A stretch of DNA of 64,000 nt from NCBI RefSeq assembly GCF_003334305.1, contig NZ_QOWS01000007.1, one strand, 5' to 3'. Shown in pieces: positions 2,012-62,905 of the stretch. Below the pieces are notes generated by a model. It did no database searches, was not told the DNA's origin, and was given only the letters and a program-made list of their open reading frames with translations. Source of the stretch: Escherichia coli. Its GTDB lineage: Bacteria > Pseudomonadota > Gammaproteobacteria > Enterobacterales > Enterobacteriaceae. Each line of letters begins with the position of its first letter. Position 1 is the stretch's first letter. Made by a program: the position numbers and the translations under genes.

Positions 2012-2815
2012 ATGCATCCGATGCTGAACATCGCCGTGCGCGCAGCGCGCAAGGCGGGTAATTTAATTGCCAAAAACTATGAAACCCCGGACGCTGTAGA
2101 AGCGAGCCAGAAAGGCAGTAACGATTTCGTGACCAACGTAGATAAAGCTGCCGAAGCGGTGATTATCGACACGATTCGTAAATCTTACCCACAGCACACC
2201 ATCATCACCGAAGAAAGCGGTGAACTTGAAGGTACTGATCAGGATGTTCAATGGGTTATCGATCCACTGGATGGTACTACCAACTTTATCAAACGTCTGC
2301 CGCACTTCGCGGTATCTATCGCCGTTCGTATCAAAGGCCGCACCGAAGTTGCTGTGGTATACGATCCTATGCGTAACGAACTGTTCACCGCCACTCGCGG
2401 TCAGGGCGCACAGCTGAACGGCTACCGTCTGCGCGGTAGCACCGCTCGCGATCTCGACGGTACCATTCTGGCGACCGGCTTCCCGTTCAAAGCAAAACAG
2501 TACGCCACTACCTACATCAACATCGTCGGCAAACTGTTCAACGAATGTGCAGACTTCCGTCGTACCGGTTCTGCGGCGCTGGATCTGGCTTACGTCGCTG
2601 CGGGTCGTGTTGACGGTTTCTTTGAAATCGGTCTGCGTCCGTGGGATTTCGCGGCAGGCGAGCTGCTGGTTCGTGAAGCGGGCGGCATCGTCAGCGACTT
2701 CACCGGTGGTCATAACTATATGCTGACCGGTAACATCGTTGCTGGTAACCCACGTGTTGTGAAAGCCATGCTGGCGAACATGCGTGACGAGTTAAGCGAC
2801 GCTCTGAAGCGTTAA
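2012..2815 (+). CDS. suhB: Inositol monophosphatase SuhB, 267 aa
   Basis: ORF track 2012..2815; recognised SuhB sequence including the WVIDPLDGTTNF motif region. Confidence 0.95.
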   Translation: MHPMLNIAVRAARKAGNLIAKNYETPDAVEASQKGSNDFVTNVDKAAEAVIIDTIRKSYPQHTIITEESGELEGTDQDVQWVIDPLDGTTNFIKRLPHFAVSIAVRIKGRTEVAVVYDPMRNELFTATRGQGAQLNGYRLRGSTARDLDGTILATGFPFKAKQYATTYINIVGKLFNECADFRRTGSAALDLAYVAAGRVDGFFEIGLRPWDFAAGELLVREAGGIVSDFTGGHNYMLTGNIVAGNPRVVKAMLANMRDELSDALKR

Positions 2816-2959
2816 TGACTCAGGCGGGTGATGTCACTCACCCGCCCTCGCCTTTCAGGCGCTATTCTGAAATACTTCCTCACCGCTTTACTTTCTTTCG
2901 TCACTCTCCCACCATCTTTCCCCGATTAATGGATGATAAAGAAGTCGCAAGGAAAGGTT

Positions 2960-3814
2960 ATGGCACTGCCAGTGAACAAACGCGTTCCCAAAATTCTGTT
3001 TATTCTCTTTGTTGTTGCCTTCTGCGTTTATTTAGTGCCGCGCGTTGCCATCAACTTCTTCTATTATCCTGACGATAAAATTTACGGTCCCGACCCCTGG
3101 TCGGCGGAATCCGTCGAATTTACGGCTAAGGACGGTACTCGTCTGCAAGGCTGGTTTATTCCTTCTTCGACGGGCCCTGCTGACAACGCCATCGCAACCA
3201 TCATTCATGCTCACGGCAATGCCGGAAATATGTCCGCCCACTGGCCGCTGGTCAGTTGGTTACCCGAGCGTAATTTCAACGTTTTTATGTTTGATTATCG
3301 CGGGTTTGGTAAATCAAAAGGCACGCCGTCCCAGGCCGGATTGCTGGACGATACGCAAAGCGCCATCAATGTGGTGCGCCATCGCAGTGATGTAAACCCA
3401 CAACGGCTGGTGCTGTTCGGGCAGAGTATTGGCGGGGCGAATATTCTTGCTGTTATTGGTCAGGGTGATCGTGAAGGCATACGTGCGGTGATCCTCGACT
3501 CCACATTTGCCTCTTATGCAACCATCGCCAACCAGATGATCCCCGGCAGTGGCTACTTACTTGATGAGAGTTACAGCGGCGAAAATTATATCGCCAGCGT
3601 CAGCCCGATCCCGCTTTTACTCATTCACGGTAAAGCTGATCACGTTATCCCATGGCAGCACAGCGAAAAGTTGTATAGCCTGGCAAAAGAGCCAAAACGG
3701 TTGATCCTAATCCCGGATGGCGAACACATTGATGCTTTTTCCGATCGCCACAGCGATGTTTATCGCGAACAGATGGTGGACTTTATCCTTAGCGCGTTGA
3801 ATCCGCAGAACTAA
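2960..3814 (+). CDS. yfhR: Putative alpha/beta-hydrolase (peptidase S9-like) with N-terminal membrane anchor YfhR, 284 aa
   Basis: ORF track 2933..3814; start moved to ATG 2960 (MALPVNKR...) which follows a GGAAAGG RBS; hydrophobic N-terminus and GQSIGG nucleophile-elbow-like motif. Confidence 0.8.
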   Translation: MALPVNKRVPKILFILFVVAFCVYLVPRVAINFFYYPDDKIYGPDPWSAESVEFTAKDGTRLQGWFIPSSTGPADNAIATIIHAHGNAGNMSAHWPLVSWLPERNFNVFMFDYRGFGKSKGTPSQAGLLDDTQSAINVVRHRSDVNPQRLVLFGQSIGGANILAVIGQGDREGIRAVILDSTFASYATIANQMIPGSGYLLDESYSGENYIASVSPIPLLLIHGKADHVIPWQHSEKLYSLAKEPKRLILIPDGEHIDAFSDRHSDVYREQMVDFILSALNPQN

Positions 3815-4004
3815 CCCATGATCGCTAGCACGATAATCATTCACAAAACCACCTTAAGACATGCTAATCCACTGGTCAGAACAGTTTAAGATGAGAAAAA
3901 TTCTGTGACGCTTGCCAACATTTCTGATGATTAGCATTCCCTTCGTCATTTCCCTGAGCAAACTTTAGCTATTCTTATCAATTATGCTTATGGGAGATCT
4001 ACAG

Positions 4005-5285
4005 ATGATGCCTACGCTTGCTCCACCATCTGTCCTTTCGGCTCCCCAGCGCCGCTGCCAGATCTTGCTGACGCTCTTTCAGCCGGGGTTGACCGCCACC
4101 ATGGCAACCTTCAGCGAGCTTAATGGTGTGGATGATGATATTGCCAGTCTTGATATCAGCGAAACAGGACGGGAGATCCTGCGCTATCATCAACTCACAC
4201 TGACGACTGGTTATGACGGTAGCTACCGGGTTGAAGGTACAGTGCTTAACCAACGTTTGTGTTTATTTCACTGGCTACGACGTGGTTTCCGTCTGTGTCC
4301 ATCATTTATTACCAGCCATTTCACCCCCGCCCTGAAGAGTGAACTGAAGCGGCGCGGAATTGCGCGTAACTTTTACGACGATACCAATCTACAAGCGTTA
4401 GTGAATCTCTGCTCCCGACGGCTGCAAAAACGCTTTGAAACGCGCGATATTCATTTCCTGTGTCTGTATCTGCAATATTGTTTGCTGCAACACCACGCTG
4501 GAATTACGCCTCAGTTTAATCCGCTCCAACGTCGCTGGGCGGAATCCTGCCTTGAATTTCAGGTAGCGCAGGAAATTGGACGCCACTGGCAGCGTCGGGC
4601 GCTCCAGCCTGTACCACCTGATGAGCCACTGTTTATGGCACTACTTTTTTCCATGTTGCGGGTTCCCGATCCACTGCGGGATGCGCATCAGCGAGACAGA
4701 CAATTGCGTCAGTCTATCAAACGTCTGGTAAACCATTTTCGTGAGCTGGGAAATGTTCGTTTTTATGATGAACAGGGGTTATGTGATCAGCTTTATACCC
4801 ACCTCGCCCAGGCGTTAAATCGCAGTTTGTTTGCCATCGGTATTGATAATACCCTGCCGGAAGAGTTCGCCAGACTGTACCCACGCCTGGTGCGCACCAC
4901 CCGCGCGGCGCTGGCCGGATTTGAAAGTGAATACGGCGTCCATCTTTCTGATGAGGAAAGTGGTCTGGTCGCGGTGATTTTCGGTGCCTGGCTAATGCAG
5001 GAAAACGATCTGCATGAAAAACAGATTATTCTACTGACCGGGAATGATAGCGAGCGAGAAGCGCAGATTGAGCAGCAGTTACGCGAACTAACGTTACTGC
5101 CGCTCAACATTAAGCATATATCGGTAAAGGCATTTTTGCAGACAGGCGCTCCGCGTGGCGCGGCACTGATTATTGCGCCTTATACCATGCCATTACCGCT
5201 CTTTTCACCACCGCTGATCTATACGGACCTGACGCTGACAACACATCAACAGGAGCAGATCCGCAAAATGCTCGAATCAGCATGA
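4005..5285 (+). CDS. csiE: Stationary-phase-inducible protein CsiE, 426 aa
   Basis: ORF track 3984..5285; start set to ATG 4005 (GGGAG RBS 8 nt upstream) matching the remembered 426-aa CsiE. Confidence 0.8.
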   Translation: MMPTLAPPSVLSAPQRRCQILLTLFQPGLTATMATFSELNGVDDDIASLDISETGREILRYHQLTLTTGYDGSYRVEGTVLNQRLCLFHWLRRGFRLCPSFITSHFTPALKSELKRRGIARNFYDDTNLQALVNLCSRRLQKRFETRDIHFLCLYLQYCLLQHHAGITPQFNPLQRRWAESCLEFQVAQEIGRHWQRRALQPVPPDEPLFMALLFSMLRVPDPLRDAHQRDRQLRQSIKRLVNHFRELGNVRFYDEQGLCDQLYTHLAQALNRSLFAIGIDNTLPEEFARLYPRLVRTTRAALAGFESEYGVHLSDEESGLVAVIFGAWLMQENDLHEKQIILLTGNDSEREAQIEQQLRELTLLPLNIKHISVKAFLQTGAPRGAALIIAPYTMPLPLFSPPLIYTDLTLTTHQQEQIRKMLESA

Positions 5286-57188: not shown

Positions 57189-57608
57189 ATGAATACCGTT
57201 TGTACCCATTGTCAGGCCATCAATCGCATTCCCGACGATCGGATCGAAGATGCGGCAAAATGCGGACGCTGCGGTCACGACTTGTTTGACGGAGAGGTGA
57301 TTAATGCGACCGGTGAAACACTCGACAAATTGCTGAAGGATGATCTACCTGTGGTGATCGACTTCTGGGCACCGTGGTGCGGCCCCTGCCGTAATTTCGC
57401 ACCAATTTTTGAAGATGTCGCGCAAGAGCGTAGCGGTAAAGTGCGCTTTGTGAAAGTGAATACCGAAGCTGAACGTGAATTGAGCAGTCGCTTTGGAATT
57501 CGTAGTATACCGACGATCATGATTTTCAAAAACGGTCAGGTTGTCGACATGCTTAATGGCGCAGTACCGAAAGCGCCGTTCGATAGCTGGCTGAACGAAT
57601 CTCTTTAA
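57189..57608 (+). CDS. trxC: Thioredoxin 2 (TrxC) with N-terminal zinc-finger Cys cluster, 139 aa
   Basis: ORF track 57189..57608; CxxC...CxxC N-terminal and WCGPC active site. Confidence 0.95.
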
Positions 57609-57613
57609 TCTTA

Positions 57614-57640
57614 CCGGGGCGCATCTTGTGCCCCGTTTTC
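57614..57640 (+). terminator. Hairpin terminator/attenuator after trxC
   Basis: cggggcgca-tctt-gtgccccg followed by TTTTCTCCTC. Confidence 0.6.
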
Positions 57641-57676
57641 TCCTCTGCGACAATGGCGTTTTTTCGACGCTCTCTT

Positions 57677-58375
57677 ATGACCGAAAACGCTGTTCTCCAG
57701 TTACGCGCCGAGCGTATTGCGCGCGCAACACGTCCTTTTCTTGCCCGCGGTAATCGCGTTCGTCGCTGCCAACGCTGTCTTTTGCCAGAGAAATTATGTC
57801 TCTGTTCGACAATTACCCCAGCACAAGCAAAAAGTCGCTTCTGTTTGCTGATGTTCGACACCGAGCCAATGAAGCCCAGTAATACCGGGCGTCTGATTGC
57901 TGATATTTTGCCTGATACCGTTGCGTTTCAATGGTCGCGTACCGAACCCTCGCAGGATTTGCTGGATCTGGTACAAAACCCGGATTATCAGCCAATGGTG
58001 GTCTTTCCCGCCTCGTATGCTGATGAGCAACGGGAAGTGATCTTCACACCACCTGCCGGTAAGCCACCGCTGTTTATCATGCTCGATGGTACCTGGCCAG
58101 AAGCTCGCAAGATGTTTCGTAAAAGTCCGTATCTGGATAATCTTCCCGTCATTTCCGTCGATCTTTCCCGGCTTTCTGCCTATCGCCTGCGTGAAGCCCA
58201 GGCTGAAGGCCAATATTGTACTGCCGAGGTAGCCATCGCACTGTTAGATATGGCCGGCGATACTGGAGCGGCTGCAGGGTTAGGCGAGCATTTTACCCGC
58301 TTTAAAACACGCTATCTGGCAGGAAAAACGCAACATCTGGGTAGCATCACAGCAGAACAGTTAGAAAGCGTTTAA
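57677..58375 (+). CDS. tapT: DTW-domain tRNA-uridine aminocarboxypropyltransferase TapT (YfiP), 232 aa
   Basis: ORF track 57626..58375; start set to ATG 57677 (MTENAVLQLRAERIARA...); Cys cluster CQRCLLPEKLCLC and DGTW motif. Confidence 0.8.
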   Translation: MTENAVLQLRAERIARATRPFLARGNRVRRCQRCLLPEKLCLCSTITPAQAKSRFCLLMFDTEPMKPSNTGRLIADILPDTVAFQWSRTEPSQDLLDLVQNPDYQPMVVFPASYADEQREVIFTPPAGKPPLFIMLDGTWPEARKMFRKSPYLDNLPVISVDLSRLSAYRLREAQAEGQYCTAEVAIALLDMAGDTGAAAGLGEHFTRFKTRYLAGKTQHLGSITAEQLESV

Positions 58376-58406
58376 AATCATTCGGTCACTTCTGCGGGAG
58401 ACCGGT

Positions 58407-61067
58407 ATGAGTCAGCGAGGACTGGAAGCACTACTGCGACCAAAATCGATTGCGGTAATTGGCGCATCGATGAAACCCAATCGCGCAGGTTACCTGATGA
58501 TGCGTAACCTGCTGGCGGGAGGCTTTAACGGACCGGTACTCCCGGTGACGCCAGCCTGGAAAGCGGTGTTGGGTGTGTTGGCCTGGCCGGATATTGCCAG
58601 CTTGCCCTTTACACCCGACCTTGCGGTTTTATGTACTAATGCCAGCCGTAATCTTGCTCTTCTGGAAGAGCTCGGCGAGAAAGGCTGTAAAACCTGCATT
58701 ATTCTTTCCGCCCCGGCATCGCAACACGAAGATCTCCGCGCCTGCGCCCTGCGCCATAACATGCGCCTGCTTGGACCAAACAGTCTGGGTTTACTGGCTC
58801 CCTGGCAAGGTCTGAATGCCAGCTTTTCGCCTGTGCCGATTAAACGCGGCAAGCTGGCGTTTATTTCGCAATCGGCTGCCGTCTCCAACACCATCCTCGA
58901 CTGGGCGCAACAGCGTAAGATGGGCTTTTCCTACTTTATTGCGCTCGGCGACAGCCTGGATATCGACGTTGATGAATTGCTTGACTATCTGGCACGCGAC
59001 AGTAAAACCAGCGCCATCCTGCTCTATCTCGAACAGTTAAGCGACGCGCGACGCTTTGTTTCGGCGGCCCGTAGTGCCTCTCGCAACAAACCGATTCTGG
59101 TGATTAAAAGCGGACGTAGCCCGGCGGCTCAACGTCTGTTGAACACCACGGCAGGAATGGATCCGGCGTGGGATGCGGCTATTCAGCGTGCCGGTTTGTT
59201 GCGGGTACAGGACACCCACGAACTGTTTTCGGCGGTGGAAACCCTTAGCCATATGCGCCCGCTGCGTGGCGACCGGTTGATGATTATCAGCAACGGTGCT
59301 GCGCCTGCCGCGCTGGCGCTTGATGCCTTATGGTCACGCAATGGCAAGCTGGCAACACTAAGCGAAGAAACCTGCCAGAAACTGCGCGATGCACTGCCAG
59401 GACATGTGGCAATCTCTAACCCGCTCGATCTGCGCGATGACGCCAGCAGTGAGCACTATATTAAAACGCTGGACATTCTGCTCCACAGCCAGGATTTTGA
59501 TGCGCTGATGGTTATTCATTCGCCCAGCGCCGCTGCTCCCGCAACAGAAAGCGCGCAAGTATTAATTGAAGCGGTAAAGCATCATCCCCGCAGCAAGTAT
59601 GTTTCTCTGCTGACGAACTGGTGTGGCGAACATTCCTCGCAAGAGGCACGACGATTATTCAGCGAAGCCGGGCTGCCGACCTACCGTACCCCGGAAGGAA
59701 CCATCACTGCTTTTATGCATATGGTGGAGTACCGGCGTAATCAGAAGCAACTACGCGAAACGCCGGCGTTGCCCAGCAATCTGACCTCCAATACCGCAGA
59801 AGCGCATCTTCTGTTGCAACAGGCGATTGCCGAAGGAGCAACGTCACTCGATACCCATGAAGTTCAGCCTATCCTGCAAGCATATGGCATGAACACGCTC
59901 CCCACCTGGATTGCCAGCGATAGCACCGAAGCGGTGCATATTGCCGAACAGATTGGTTATCCGGTGGCGCTGAAATTGCGTTCGCCGGATATTCCACATA
60001 AATCGGAAGTTCAGGGCGTCATGCTCTACCTGCGTACAGCCAATGAAGTCCAGCAAGCGGCAAACGCCATTTTCGATCGCGTAAAAATGGCCTGGCCGCA
60101 GGCACGGGTCCACGGCCTGTTGGTGCAAAGTATGGCTAACCGTGCTGGTGCTCAGGAGTTGCGGGTTGTGGTTGAGCACGATCCGGTTTTCGGGCCGTTG
60201 ATCATGCTGGGCGAAGGCGGTGTGGAGTGGCGTCCTGAAGATCAAGCCGTCGTCGCGTTACCGCCGCTGAACATGAACCTGGCCCGCTATCTGGTTATTC
60301 AGGGGATCAAAAGTAAAAAGATTCGTGCACGCAGTGCGCTACGCCCATTGGATGTTGCAGGCTTGAGCCAGCTTCTGGTGCAGGTTTCCAACTTGATTGT
60401 CGATTGCCCGGAAATTCAGCGTCTGGATATTCATCCTTTGCTGGCTTCTGGCAGTGAATTTACCGCGCTGGATGTCACGCTGGATATCTCGCCGTTTGAA
60501 GGCGATAACGAGAGTCGGCTGGCAGTGCGCCCTTATCCGCATCAGCTGGAAGAATGGGTAGAATTGAAAAACGGTGAACGCTGCTTGTTCCGCCCGATTT
60601 TGCCAGAAGATGAGCCACAACTTCAGCAATTCATTTCGCGAGTCACCAAAGAAGATCTTTATTACCGCTACTTTAGCGAGATCAACGAATTTACCCATGA
60701 AGATTTAGCCAACATGACACAGATCGACTACGATCGGGAAATGGCGTTTGTAGCGGTACGACGTATTGATCAAACGGAAGAGATCCTCGGCGTCACGCGT
60801 GCGATTTCCGATCCTGATAACATCGATGCCGAATTTGCTGTGCTGGTTCGCTCGGATCTCAAAGGGTTAGGCTTAGGTCGACGCTTAATGGAAAAGTTGA
60901 TTACCTATACGCGAGATCACGGACTACAACGTCTGAATGGTATTACGATGCCAAACAATCGTGGCATGGTGGCGCTAGCCCGCAAGCTCGGGTTTAACGT
61001 TGATATCCAGCTCGAAGAGGGGATCGTTGGGCTTACGCTAAATCTTGCCCAACGCGAGGAATCATGA
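58407..61067 (+). CDS. patZ: Protein lysine acetyltransferase PatZ/Pka (YfiQ), CoA-binding + ATP-grasp-like + GNAT domains, 886 aa
   Basis: ORF track 58407..61067; recognised YfiQ architecture. Confidence 0.9.
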   Translation: MSQRGLEALLRPKSIAVIGASMKPNRAGYLMMRNLLAGGFNGPVLPVTPAWKAVLGVLAWPDIASLPFTPDLAVLCTNASRNLALLEELGEKGCKTCIILSAPASQHEDLRACALRHNMRLLGPNSLGLLAPWQGLNASFSPVPIKRGKLAFISQSAAVSNTILDWAQQRKMGFSYFIALGDSLDIDVDELLDYLARDSKTSAILLYLEQLSDARRFVSAARSASRNKPILVIKSGRSPAAQRLLNTTAGMDPAWDAAIQRAGLLRVQDTHELFSAVETLSHMRPLRGDRLMIISNGAAPAALALDALWSRNGKLATLSEETCQKLRDALPGHVAISNPLDLRDDASSEHYIKTLDILLHSQDFDALMVIHSPSAAAPATESAQVLIEAVKHHPRSKYVSLLTNWCGEHSSQEARRLFSEAGLPTYRTPEGTITAFMHMVEYRRNQKQLRETPALPSNLTSNTAEAHLLLQQAIAEGATSLDTHEVQPILQAYGMNTLPTWIASDSTEAVHIAEQIGYPVALKLRSPDIPHKSEVQGVMLYLRTANEVQQAANAIFDRVKMAWPQARVHGLLVQSMANRAGAQELRVVVEHDPVFGPLIMLGEGGVEWRPEDQAVVALPPLNMNLARYLVIQGIKSKKIRARSALRPLDVAGLSQLLVQVSNLIVDCPEIQRLDIHPLLASGSEFTALDVTLDISPFEGDNESRLAVRPYPHQLEEWVELKNGERCLFRPILPEDEPQLQQFISRVTKEDLYYRYFSEINEFTHEDLANMTQIDYDREMAFVAVRRIDQTEEILGVTRAISDPDNIDAEFAVLVRSDLKGLGLGRRLMEKLITYTRDHGLQRLNGITMPNNRGMVALARKLGFNVDIQLEEGIVGLTLNLAQREES

Positions 61068-61180
61068 GTAAGGTACTGGAAATGTTGACCACTTAATCGG
61101 GACTGGTGTTATTATTGCCCGCTTATGTCGTCTGCATTGCACAGAGGACCCTTCAATGAACAGAGAAGAAATGCACTGTG

Positions 61181-62536
61181 ATGTTGTCAAAATTTAAGCG
61201 TAATAAACATCAACAACACCTTGCCCAACTACCCAAGATTTCTCAATCAGTTGATGATGTCGATTTCTTTTACGCTCCCGCCGACTTCCGGGAGACGCTG
61301 CTGGAAAAAATAGCCAGCGCGAAGCAGCGCATTTGCATTGTCGCCCTGTATCTCGAACAGGATGACGGTGGCAAAGGCATTCTGAACGCGTTGTATGAAG
61401 CTAAAAGGCAGCGTCCGGAACTGGATGTGCGGGTGCTGGTCGACTGGCATCGTGCACAACGTGGACGCATTGGCGCTGCGGCATCTAACACTAACGCTGA
61501 CTGGTACTGCCGCATGGCGCAGGAAAATCCGGGCGTAGATGTTCCGGTTTATGGCGTTCCAATCAATACCCGTGAAGCCCTTGGTGTTCTGCACTTTAAA
61601 GGCTTTATCATCGACGATAGCGTACTTTATAGCGGTGCCAGCCTGAACGATGTTTACCTGCATCAGCACGATAAATATCGCTACGACCGTTATCATCTTA
61701 TCCGTAACCGTAAGATGTCAGACATTATGTTTGAATGGGTTACACAGAATATTATGAATGGCCGCGGCGTTAATCGTCTGGATGATGTTAATCGGCCAAA
61801 AAGCCCGGAAATCAAGAACGATATTCGTCTGTTCCGCCAGGAGCTGCGTGATGCCGCTTATCATTTCCAGGGCGATGCCGACAACGATCAGCTTTCCGTA
61901 ACGCCGCTAGTGGGGCTGGGGAAATCGAGTCTGTTGAACAAGACCATTTTCCATCTTATGCCTTGTGCCGAGCAGAAACTAACCATCTGTACGCCATACT
62001 TCAACCTGCCAGCAATCCTTGTGCGCAATATTATCCAGTTGCTGCGCGAAGGGAAAAAGGTCGAAATTATTGTTGGTGATAAAACCGCGAACGACTTCTA
62101 CATTCCGGAAGATGAACCTTTCAAGATAATTGGCGCATTGCCTTATCTCTATGAGATCAATCTGCGTCGTTTCCTGAGCCGTTTGCAGTATTACGTCAAT
62201 ACTGACCAGCTAGTGGTTCGGTTATGGAAAGATGACGACAACACCTATCACCTAAAAGGGATGTGGGTTGATGATAAGTGGATGTTGATCACCGGTAATA
62301 ACCTGAACCCGCGCGCCTGGCGTCTGGATCTGGAAAACGCCATTTTGATCCACGATCCACAACTGGAGCTTGCGCCGCAGCGAGAGAAAGAACTGGAGCT
62401 GATCCGCGAGCATACCACCATCGTTAAGCACTATCGCGATCTGCAAAGTATTGCCGATTATCCGGTGAAGGTTCGTAAACTCATCCGCCGTTTGCGCCGT
62501 ATCCGCATCGACCGATTAATTAGCCGCATCCTGTAA
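61181..62536 (+). CDS. pssA: CDP-diacylglycerol--serine O-phosphatidyltransferase (phosphatidylserine synthase) PssA, 451 aa
   Basis: ORF track 61178..62536 (GTG); ATG at 61181 used; two PLD-type HxK motifs. Confidence 0.93.
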   Translation: MLSKFKRNKHQQHLAQLPKISQSVDDVDFFYAPADFRETLLEKIASAKQRICIVALYLEQDDGGKGILNALYEAKRQRPELDVRVLVDWHRAQRGRIGAAASNTNADWYCRMAQENPGVDVPVYGVPINTREALGVLHFKGFIIDDSVLYSGASLNDVYLHQHDKYRYDRYHLIRNRKMSDIMFEWVTQNIMNGRGVNRLDDVNRPKSPEIKNDIRLFRQELRDAAYHFQGDADNDQLSVTPLVGLGKSSLLNKTIFHLMPCAEQKLTICTPYFNLPAILVRNIIQLLREGKKVEIIVGDKTANDFYIPEDEPFKIIGALPYLYEINLRRFLSRLQYYVNTDQLVVRLWKDDDNTYHLKGMWVDDKWMLITGNNLNPRAWRLDLENAILIHDPQLELAPQREKELELIREHTTIVKHYRDLQSIADYPVKVRKLIRRLRRIRIDRLISRIL

Positions 62537-62541
62537 TCACA

Positions 62542-62569
62542 ACCCCGTCCTGTACGGGGTTTGTTTTTT
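62542..62569 (+). terminator. Rho-independent terminator of pssA
   Basis: accccgt-cctgt-acggggt followed by TTTGTTTTTT. Confidence 0.75.
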
Positions 62570-62581
62570 GGAGGCCACGTT

Positions 62582-62905
62582 TTGCGTATTCTTTTTGTCT
62601 GTTCGCTATTGTTACTTTCTGGATGCAGCCATATGGCTAACGATAGCTGGAGCGGGCAGGATAAAGCTCAACACTTTATTGCCTCGGCGATGCTTTCCGC
62701 CGCCGGAAATGAATATTCACAGCATCAGGGGATGAGCCGGGATCGCAGTGCCATGTTTGGATTGATGTTCTCTGTCAGTTTGGGGGCGTCAAAAGAGCTT
62801 TGGGATAGCCGCCCCGAAGGGAGCGGCTGGAGCTGGAAGGATTTGGCCTGGGATGTCGCCGGTGCAAGCACCGGCTATACCGTCTGGCAACTGACCCGTC
62901 ACTAA
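62582..62905 (+). CDS. yfiM: Putative lipoprotein YfiM, about 107 aa; start uncertain (TTG at 62582 or TTG at 62561)
   Basis: ORF track 62561..62905; lipobox LLSGC; GGAGG RBS at 62570-62574 sits 7 nt upstream of TTG 62582. Confidence 0.6.

Follow-up and report, generated by a model that had tools for sequence, protein, structure and literature searches.

The start of yfiM in Escherichia coli K-12 (b2586, NP_417081.2) has been re-annotated. The 2006 GenBank record placed it at an ATG, giving a product of 90 aa without a signal peptide, and this start is now abandoned. Tetracycline-inhibited ribosome profiling (TetRP; PMC4909307, Table S2 row 42) assigned a new start, a TTG at U00096.2 2722150, 51 nt upstream of the ATG annotated in 2006, and the 2014 K-12 record already carried the change from ATG to TTG. 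CoBaltDB (2010, PMC2850352) lists the start of MG1655 YfiM as already changed, with 17 N-terminal residues added, and credits the 2006 annotation paper (PMC1325200) with this change, which made YfiM a predicted lipoprotein; CoBaltDB gives lipoprotein status as a prediction only. This dating conflicts with the TetRP account, according to which the ATG was still in place in the 2006 record.

As to function, Burroughs, Nicastro and Aravind (2025) described the Lipocone superfamily, which includes proteins annotated as YfiM together with Pfam DUF2279 and whose core comprises four helices (H1-H4) with conserved polar residues. The same authors reported a conserved five-gene operon of a thioredoxin, a DTW enzyme, an acyl-CoA ligase/GNAT/ATP-grasp protein, PssA and YfiM-1, tied it to the modification of lipid head groups and possibly to antibacterial resistance, and proposed, as a prediction, the head group of phosphatidylserine as the target of YfiM.

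Here we analyzed the start of yfiM in a 64,000-nt stretch of E. coli DNA (hereafter the window, to which all coordinates refer unless marked K-12). An earlier note on this DNA had called the start ambiguous between two TTG codons, at 62561 and 62582, and had preferred the second. We conclude, with a probability of about 0.92, that translation of yfiM begins with the UUG at 62582, under the direction of the GGAGG found at 62570-62574, and yields a 107-residue prolipoprotein with a 14-residue signal peptide and Cys15 as its lipobox cysteine. This start is already known from RefSeq, from the K-12 record and from a published start-site screen. The TTG at 62561 belongs to the pssA terminator, lying in its T-run, and shares the yfiM frame by coincidence in the common E. 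coli allele.

Identity and layout of the yfiM locus

The locus was identified by comparison with complete E. coli genomes, using a 701-nt query (window 62300-63000). It was matched in all 5426 of them, with identity up to 100%, and the matches always fell under the pssA, yfiM and kgtP annotations; the 75-nt start region was the same in 4903 genomes, K-12 included, where K-12 coordinates equal window coordinates plus 2661546. Both the PGAP annotation of a strain 100% identical over the 701 nt and NC_000913.3 give yfiM as a gene of 324 nt and 107 aa, corresponding to window 62582-62905 on the plus strand (YfiM family lipoprotein, Pfam DUF2279). The protein was identical to that of K-12, as checked against the K-12 sequence in the TetRP table; the gene order is shared (patZ, pssL, pssA, yfiM and the convergent kgtP), and so is the TTG start, leaving no difference of substance.

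Profile searches agreed with this assignment. The NCBIfam equivalog model NF008028 (YfiM) scored 193.5 bits (E = 6.6e-58) against a curated cut-off of 117 bits, which together with the RefSeq and K-12 annotation bore out the reading of the earlier note that the gene is the yfiM lipoprotein gene downstream of pssA. Residues 9-112 of the 114-aa form that begins at the first TTG aligned with positions 2-105 of the 106 of the model; since residue 9 corresponds to position 2, position 1 falls on the codon at 62582. Pfam PF10043 (DUF2279) matched residues 31-107 with model positions 12-88 of 91 (E = 1.7e-9), and YfiM homologues carry a precomputed PF10043 assignment. Nearly all homologues are 107 aa long, and clusters of 90-aa database entries persist. 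An IS3-family element lies within yfiM of E. coli SCU-306 (L003, locus 2783-4419), splitting it into two pseudogene fragments; yfiM is thus dispensable in at least one commensal isolate.

Upstream, the pssA gene (RefSeq, window 61181-62536, plus strand) ends with ATC CTG TAA, its stop codon occupying 62534-62536, and is followed by tcac before a terminator hairpin. From there the order is hairpin, T-run (62560-62569), GGAGG (62570-62574), ccacgtt and the TTG of 62582. The reading from this TTG begins TTG CGT ATT CTT TTT GTC TGT TCG CTA TTG TTA CTT TCT GGA TGC. The two TTGs (62561-62563 and 62582-62584) share one frame, seven codons apart, and one ORF end, TAA at 62903-62905; the longest form in the ORF list, 62561-62905, is TTG-initiated and codes for 114 aa. 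That the two are in frame was therefore rightly noted. They are not the only candidates, as two more in-frame NTGs follow: TTG 62609, which falls within the hydrophobic core, and ATG 62633 (62633-62635), three codons past the cysteine, which is the ATG of the old K-12 annotation.

At their other ends yfiM and kgtP converge, with coding ends that overlap by 4 nt (62902-62905, both strands): the yfiM TAA lies at 62903-62905 and the kgtP stop is the reverse complement of CTA at 62902-62904. The two genes have no intergenic terminator between them (window 62800-62905, both strands). Two minus-strand hairpins lie within yfiM around RNA 3′ ends of the kgtP strand, which were reported antisense inside yfiM at K-12 2724397 and 2724366 (window 62851 and 62820); ExcludonFinder gives yfiM-kgtP as an overlapping transcript pair. 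At the other flank, a 13-codon ORF, MNREEMHCDVVKI (61156-61197, plus strand), overlaps the pssA start at 61181 and is named pssL (b4782) in K-12; a search of the literature for 'pssL' returned only unrelated acronyms. A GTG at 61178 stands immediately 5′ of the annotated pssA ATG.

The pssA terminator and the length of its T-run

The pssA terminator (62541-62561, plus strand) consists of AACCCCGT cctgt ACGGGGTT, an 8-bp stem with five G-C pairs and a 5-nt loop, and is followed by the T-run TTTGTTTTTT at 62560-62569; it folds at -11.4 kcal/mol. Our terminator scan reported a 6-bp core (62543-62548 paired with 62554-62559, loop 62549-62553) and found this hairpin with its T-run to be the sole terminator-like site in 61000-63200. 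The first T of TTG 62561 can pair in the extended stem. Local folding of 62530-62600 was marginally more stable than that of shuffled sequences (z = -2.0). The earlier note had placed the gene about 12 nt after the terminator hairpin, a figure that holds when counted from the end of the T-run; counted from the core hairpin the distance is 22 nt. The same remark overlooked that the first TTG lies inside the T-run.

The structure is conserved. In an alignment of 34 representative species, five of the eight stem pairs had changed in both partners with pairing preserved (e.g. G-C to A-U). All 77 species in which both genes were found have a pssA-yfiM spacer of 39-57 nt with a constant order of hairpin, T-run, some 10-15 nt and start, the hairpin beginning 5-10 nt after the pssA stop. 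In published K-12 data (PMC7815308, supplementary file 2), a 'primary' 3′ end of pssA is given at K-12 2724116, i.e. window 62570. RNA coverage across this position drops from 179 to 30 in untreated cells, and bicyclomycin reduces the drop to one from 90 to 46 (PMC7815308). The table in question lists Rho-dependent regions, and Rho may account for some of the loss. The coverage drop and the 3′ end together indicate that most pssA transcripts end there and that a minority reach yfiM. A G+C-rich hairpin followed by a T-run, a conserved structure and a 3′ end in vivo at the T-run make this an intrinsic terminator.

The T-run is polymorphic in length within E. coli. Counted as exact matches to queries of 73-76 nt in E. 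coli genomes, the second T block occurred as T6 in about 4903 genomes, as T4 in 106, as T5 in 18 and as T7 in four. At least 128 E. coli genomes thus carry length variants that are not multiples of three, and in the T4, T5 and T7 alleles the upstream TTG is out of frame. The yfiM gene was nevertheless annotated as an intact YfiM lipoprotein in six variant records among the 100% matches listed, and the T4 strain GPEC60-33-648 is likewise annotated with an intact YfiM family lipoprotein gene. Insertions and deletions of lengths other than multiples of three are tolerated in non-coding sequence only. As side observations, the second T block of E. whittamii is a T8, and the length of the T-run could change both the efficiency of termination and the distance from hairpin to Shine-Dalgarno sequence.

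The start codon of yfiM

To compare the locus across Enterobacteriaceae we scanned one genome per species, which gave 80 loci, located the lipobox cysteine and walked the frame upstream; the window and 79 loci with enough upstream sequence made up the 80 loci of the start-codon count. A start codon stood 14 codons before the cysteine, or 15 where a one-codon insertion occurred, in 80/80 loci. At this conserved position, which in the window is the TTG at 62582-62584, there were 55 ATG, 19 GTG and six TTG codons. TTG was confined to Escherichia, GTG occurred mostly in Citrobacter and Salmonella with a few Enterobacter and Leclercia, and ATG was used by the rest. Four loci have an in-frame stop only two or three codons upstream of the start, so that the short, 14-residue signal peptide is the sole option there.

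The ribosome-binding signals point to the same codon. The earlier note had seen a GGAGG at 62570-62574 and taken it to favour the second TTG; it is indeed there, 7 nt before that codon, and was present in all Escherichia loci. The choice accords with the annotation, the NF008028 alignment, the conserved start in all 80 loci and the TetRP signal. For TTG 62582 we computed an anti-Shine-Dalgarno duplex with the 16S 3′ end of -9.3 kcal/mol, a spacing of 6-7 nt and a predicted unpaired probability of 0.46. Profiling of initiation sites, which the note had proposed as a check, exists in published form: the TetRP screen recorded read depths of 0, 16.7 and 2.3 in three samples at this TTG and of 0, 0 and 0 at ATG 62633 (PMC4909307). 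The signal is weak, one of the three samples being without reads. We found yfiM in neither of the supplements of the INRI-seq and TRAINSPOTTER start-site studies. TTG 62582 therefore has the 5-9 nt spacing and the initiating-ribosome signal, albeit a weak one, of Shine-Dalgarno-led initiation at non-AUG codons.

Were translation to begin at the first TTG, 62561, the precursor would have 114 residues and a signal peptide of 21. This codon shares the frame, and no NTG precedes it after the upstream stop; the longer signal peptide would be of a more typical length, and the TetRP screen, which covered NTGs fewer than 60 nt 5′ of the ATG annotated in 2006, did not score a codon 72 nt away (PMC4909307). 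Its sole anti-Shine-Dalgarno match, however, consists of the GGGG in the 3′ arm of the hairpin (-5.6 kcal/mol) at a spacing of 0-1 nt, its predicted unpaired probability is 0.15, and it is situated within the T-run of the terminator, reaching in part into the stem. An equivalent in-frame TTG was found among related loci only in the common-type E. coli allele and in E. whittamii; it was either missing from or shifted out of that frame in E. albertii, Escherichia sp. MOD1-EC7003 (L004), Escherichia sp. E1V33 (L006), the E. coli SCPM-O-B-8794 representative (L008) and the E. coli T4 strains, and the out-of-frame T4, T5 and T7 E. coli retain yfiM. Some upstream in-frame NTG occurred in 50/80 loci, so that this one amounts to no more than chance. 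The seven extra residues moreover lie beyond the reach of the family profile and contain neither Lys nor Arg. We regard a start at 62561 as very improbable and reject it, the codon (62561-62563) being a by-product of a G within the T-run. A joint use of both codons, with 62582 as the main start, 62561 as a minor one in T6-allele strains and a single mature lipoprotein after cleavage, would profit from the fact that both N-termini carry the same hydrophobic core and lipobox. All points against the 62561 start apply equally to it, it would be without selectable consequence, and the frame is not kept across strains; we give it only a slightly better chance than exclusive use of the first TTG.

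The start of the old annotation, ATG 62633, would yield a 90-residue protein without signal peptide. In its favour, ATG is the strongest start codon, and, besides its place in the 2006 record, 90-aa entries from it still form database clusters. Against it stand the read depth of 0 in all three TetRP samples and a weak Shine-Dalgarno match (-3.1 kcal/mol at a spacing of 8 nt). The 17 residues upstream of it, including L-x-G-C, are conserved at the protein level across all homologues, as would be expected only of translated residues; of the readings considered, this one has next to no chance. The start at 62582 is itself open to one objection, in that Cys15 lies at the short extreme of what lipoprotein signal peptides allow and the 22-residue alternative has a more typical length. 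The orthologues with upstream stops indicate that the short length is genuine. We retain UUG 62582. The ambiguity that the earlier note described does exist as two in-frame TTGs and is far smaller than stated, having long been resolved in annotation; historically it was one between ATG 62633 and TTG 62582, and the gene was re-annotated years ago. More generally, an in-frame NTG is no candidate start when it falls within the T-run of a terminator, and length variants between strains, where they shift the frame, offer an inexpensive way of showing this.

Two observations on start signals in other genera were made from the same scan. In the 22 nt upstream of each yfiM start (loci L004-L083), an anti-Shine-Dalgarno duplex of -9 kcal/mol or stronger was found in 6/6 TTG, 15/19 GTG and 3/55 ATG loci. 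Weak start codons thus pair with strong Shine-Dalgarno sequences across genera, in a comparison that is confounded by phylogeny, Escherichia and Citrobacter being one clade. In Citrobacter, Enterobacter and Leclercia (e.g. L015, L029, L052 and L075), an in-frame ATG lies four codons before the conserved GTG, overlaps the Shine-Dalgarno sequence (TATGGAGG) and yields 111-aa database entries beginning MEV... or MEL...; the yfiM start is more ambiguous there than in E. coli.

Lipoprotein signal, expression and relation to known systems

Lipoprotein signals are described by a PROSITE PS51257-style rule, {DERK}(6)-[LIVMFWSTAG](2)-[LIVMFYSTAGCQ]-[AGS]-C, with the cysteine at positions 15-35 and at least one Lys or Arg among residues 1-7. 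We applied it to both candidate N-termini, a check that the earlier note had suggested. The lipobox pattern was matched in both, and only the short form has the early Lys or Arg. The short form has Cys15, at the lower limit, and Arg2, whereas the long form from 62561 has Cys22 and no Lys or Arg among its first seven residues. The second start gives the lipobox LLSGC, as had been noted: the predicted type II signal peptide of 14 residues spans 62582-62623, and the lipobox L-S-G-C spans 62615-62626, its cysteine codon (62624-62626) encoding Cys15, the would-be lipidated first residue of the mature protein. L12, G14 and C15 were invariant or nearly so in 38 homologues. In the published passages naming yfiM that were examined, no experiment on lipidation or LspA-dependent (globomycin-sensitive) processing of YfiM was found. 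The precursor would be processed by the usual Lgt/LspA/Lnt route, and Ser at +2 would direct YfiM to the outer membrane. Because LspA would cut before the cysteine, as in the established lipoprotein pathway, either start would lead to the same mature protein, and the choice between the TTGs would matter little for it.

The AlphaFold model of YfiM (mean pLDDT 80.8) has helices at residues 2-13, 25-48, 53-74 and 85-106, the first being the predicted cleaved signal peptide and the other three, long ones, following the cysteine. The polar residues invariant among YfiM homologues (D21, K28, Q30, N43, K71, E72, D75, K86, D87 and D91) fall in or beside these three later helices. Structural neighbours of the model were YfiM lipoproteins, DUF2279 proteins and VanZ-like proteins.

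Expression of yfiM is probably dependent on transcripts that read through the terminator of pssA, as suggested by one published coverage comparison and by the lack of a promoter match. The yfiM mRNA would arise mainly in this way, given that no promoter above chance was found between pssA and yfiM: the scan of 61000-63200 returned three weak sigma-70-like sites, where 2.7 would be expected by chance. Just one of them is on the plus strand; it lies at 62006-62034, 550 nt upstream inside pssA, and was rejected. Apart from a fortuitous miRNA match on the opposite strand, close to the start of pssA, an Rfam search (E <= 1) found nothing. In the read-through RNA, GGAGGC (62570-62575) is predicted to pair with 62523-62531, in the last pssA codons, enclosing the hairpin. 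Sequestration of the Shine-Dalgarno sequence with translational coupling was considered on this ground and rejected, as a shuffled 5′ segment equalled the pairing probability in 13/60 trials, which is not significant; over 79 loci (78 related ones and the window) mean pairing was 0.80 for native and 0.63 for shuffled sequence, a difference mostly of composition.

One can imagine that the pssA-yfiM layout is a device fixing yfiM expression as a small fraction of pssA expression, an idea we consider unlikely. Under it, ribosomes ending pssA would cover the hairpin 5′ arm and the segment that pairs with the Shine-Dalgarno sequence, and would so weaken termination and unmask the yfiM Shine-Dalgarno sequence, such that only those pssA messages that are under translation would give rise to YfiM. 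The shift to weak starts (GTG, then TTG in Escherichia) with strong Shine-Dalgarno sequences would be a part of the same tuning. With genes whose ribosome-binding site follows a terminator and which depend on read-through, the locus shares the hairpin, the T-run, a gapless Shine-Dalgarno sequence and a start 12 nt later; it differs in that the predicted pairing of this sequence with the pssA end is no better than in shuffled sequences.

Similarly, YfiM shares with classical type II lipoproteins (e.g. Lpp) an N-terminus charged by Arg2, a hydrophobic core, L-S-G-C and Ser at +2. It differs from them by an unusually short signal peptide (Cys15) and by UUG initiation, and its lipidation is predicted. 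The gene is more interesting than its start, as a probable Lipocone member with a predicted function in a conserved operon with phosphatidylserine synthase. The model and its neighbours fit the Lipocone superfamily; YfiM has three helices past the cysteine in the model, in contrast to the four-helix core, so that either the cleaved signal peptide was counted as H1 or mature YfiM would be a three-helix, lipid-anchored version. The five-gene operon described for this superfamily matches trxC-tapT-patZ-pssA-yfiM of the window (57189-62905, plus strand, pssL/pssA included).
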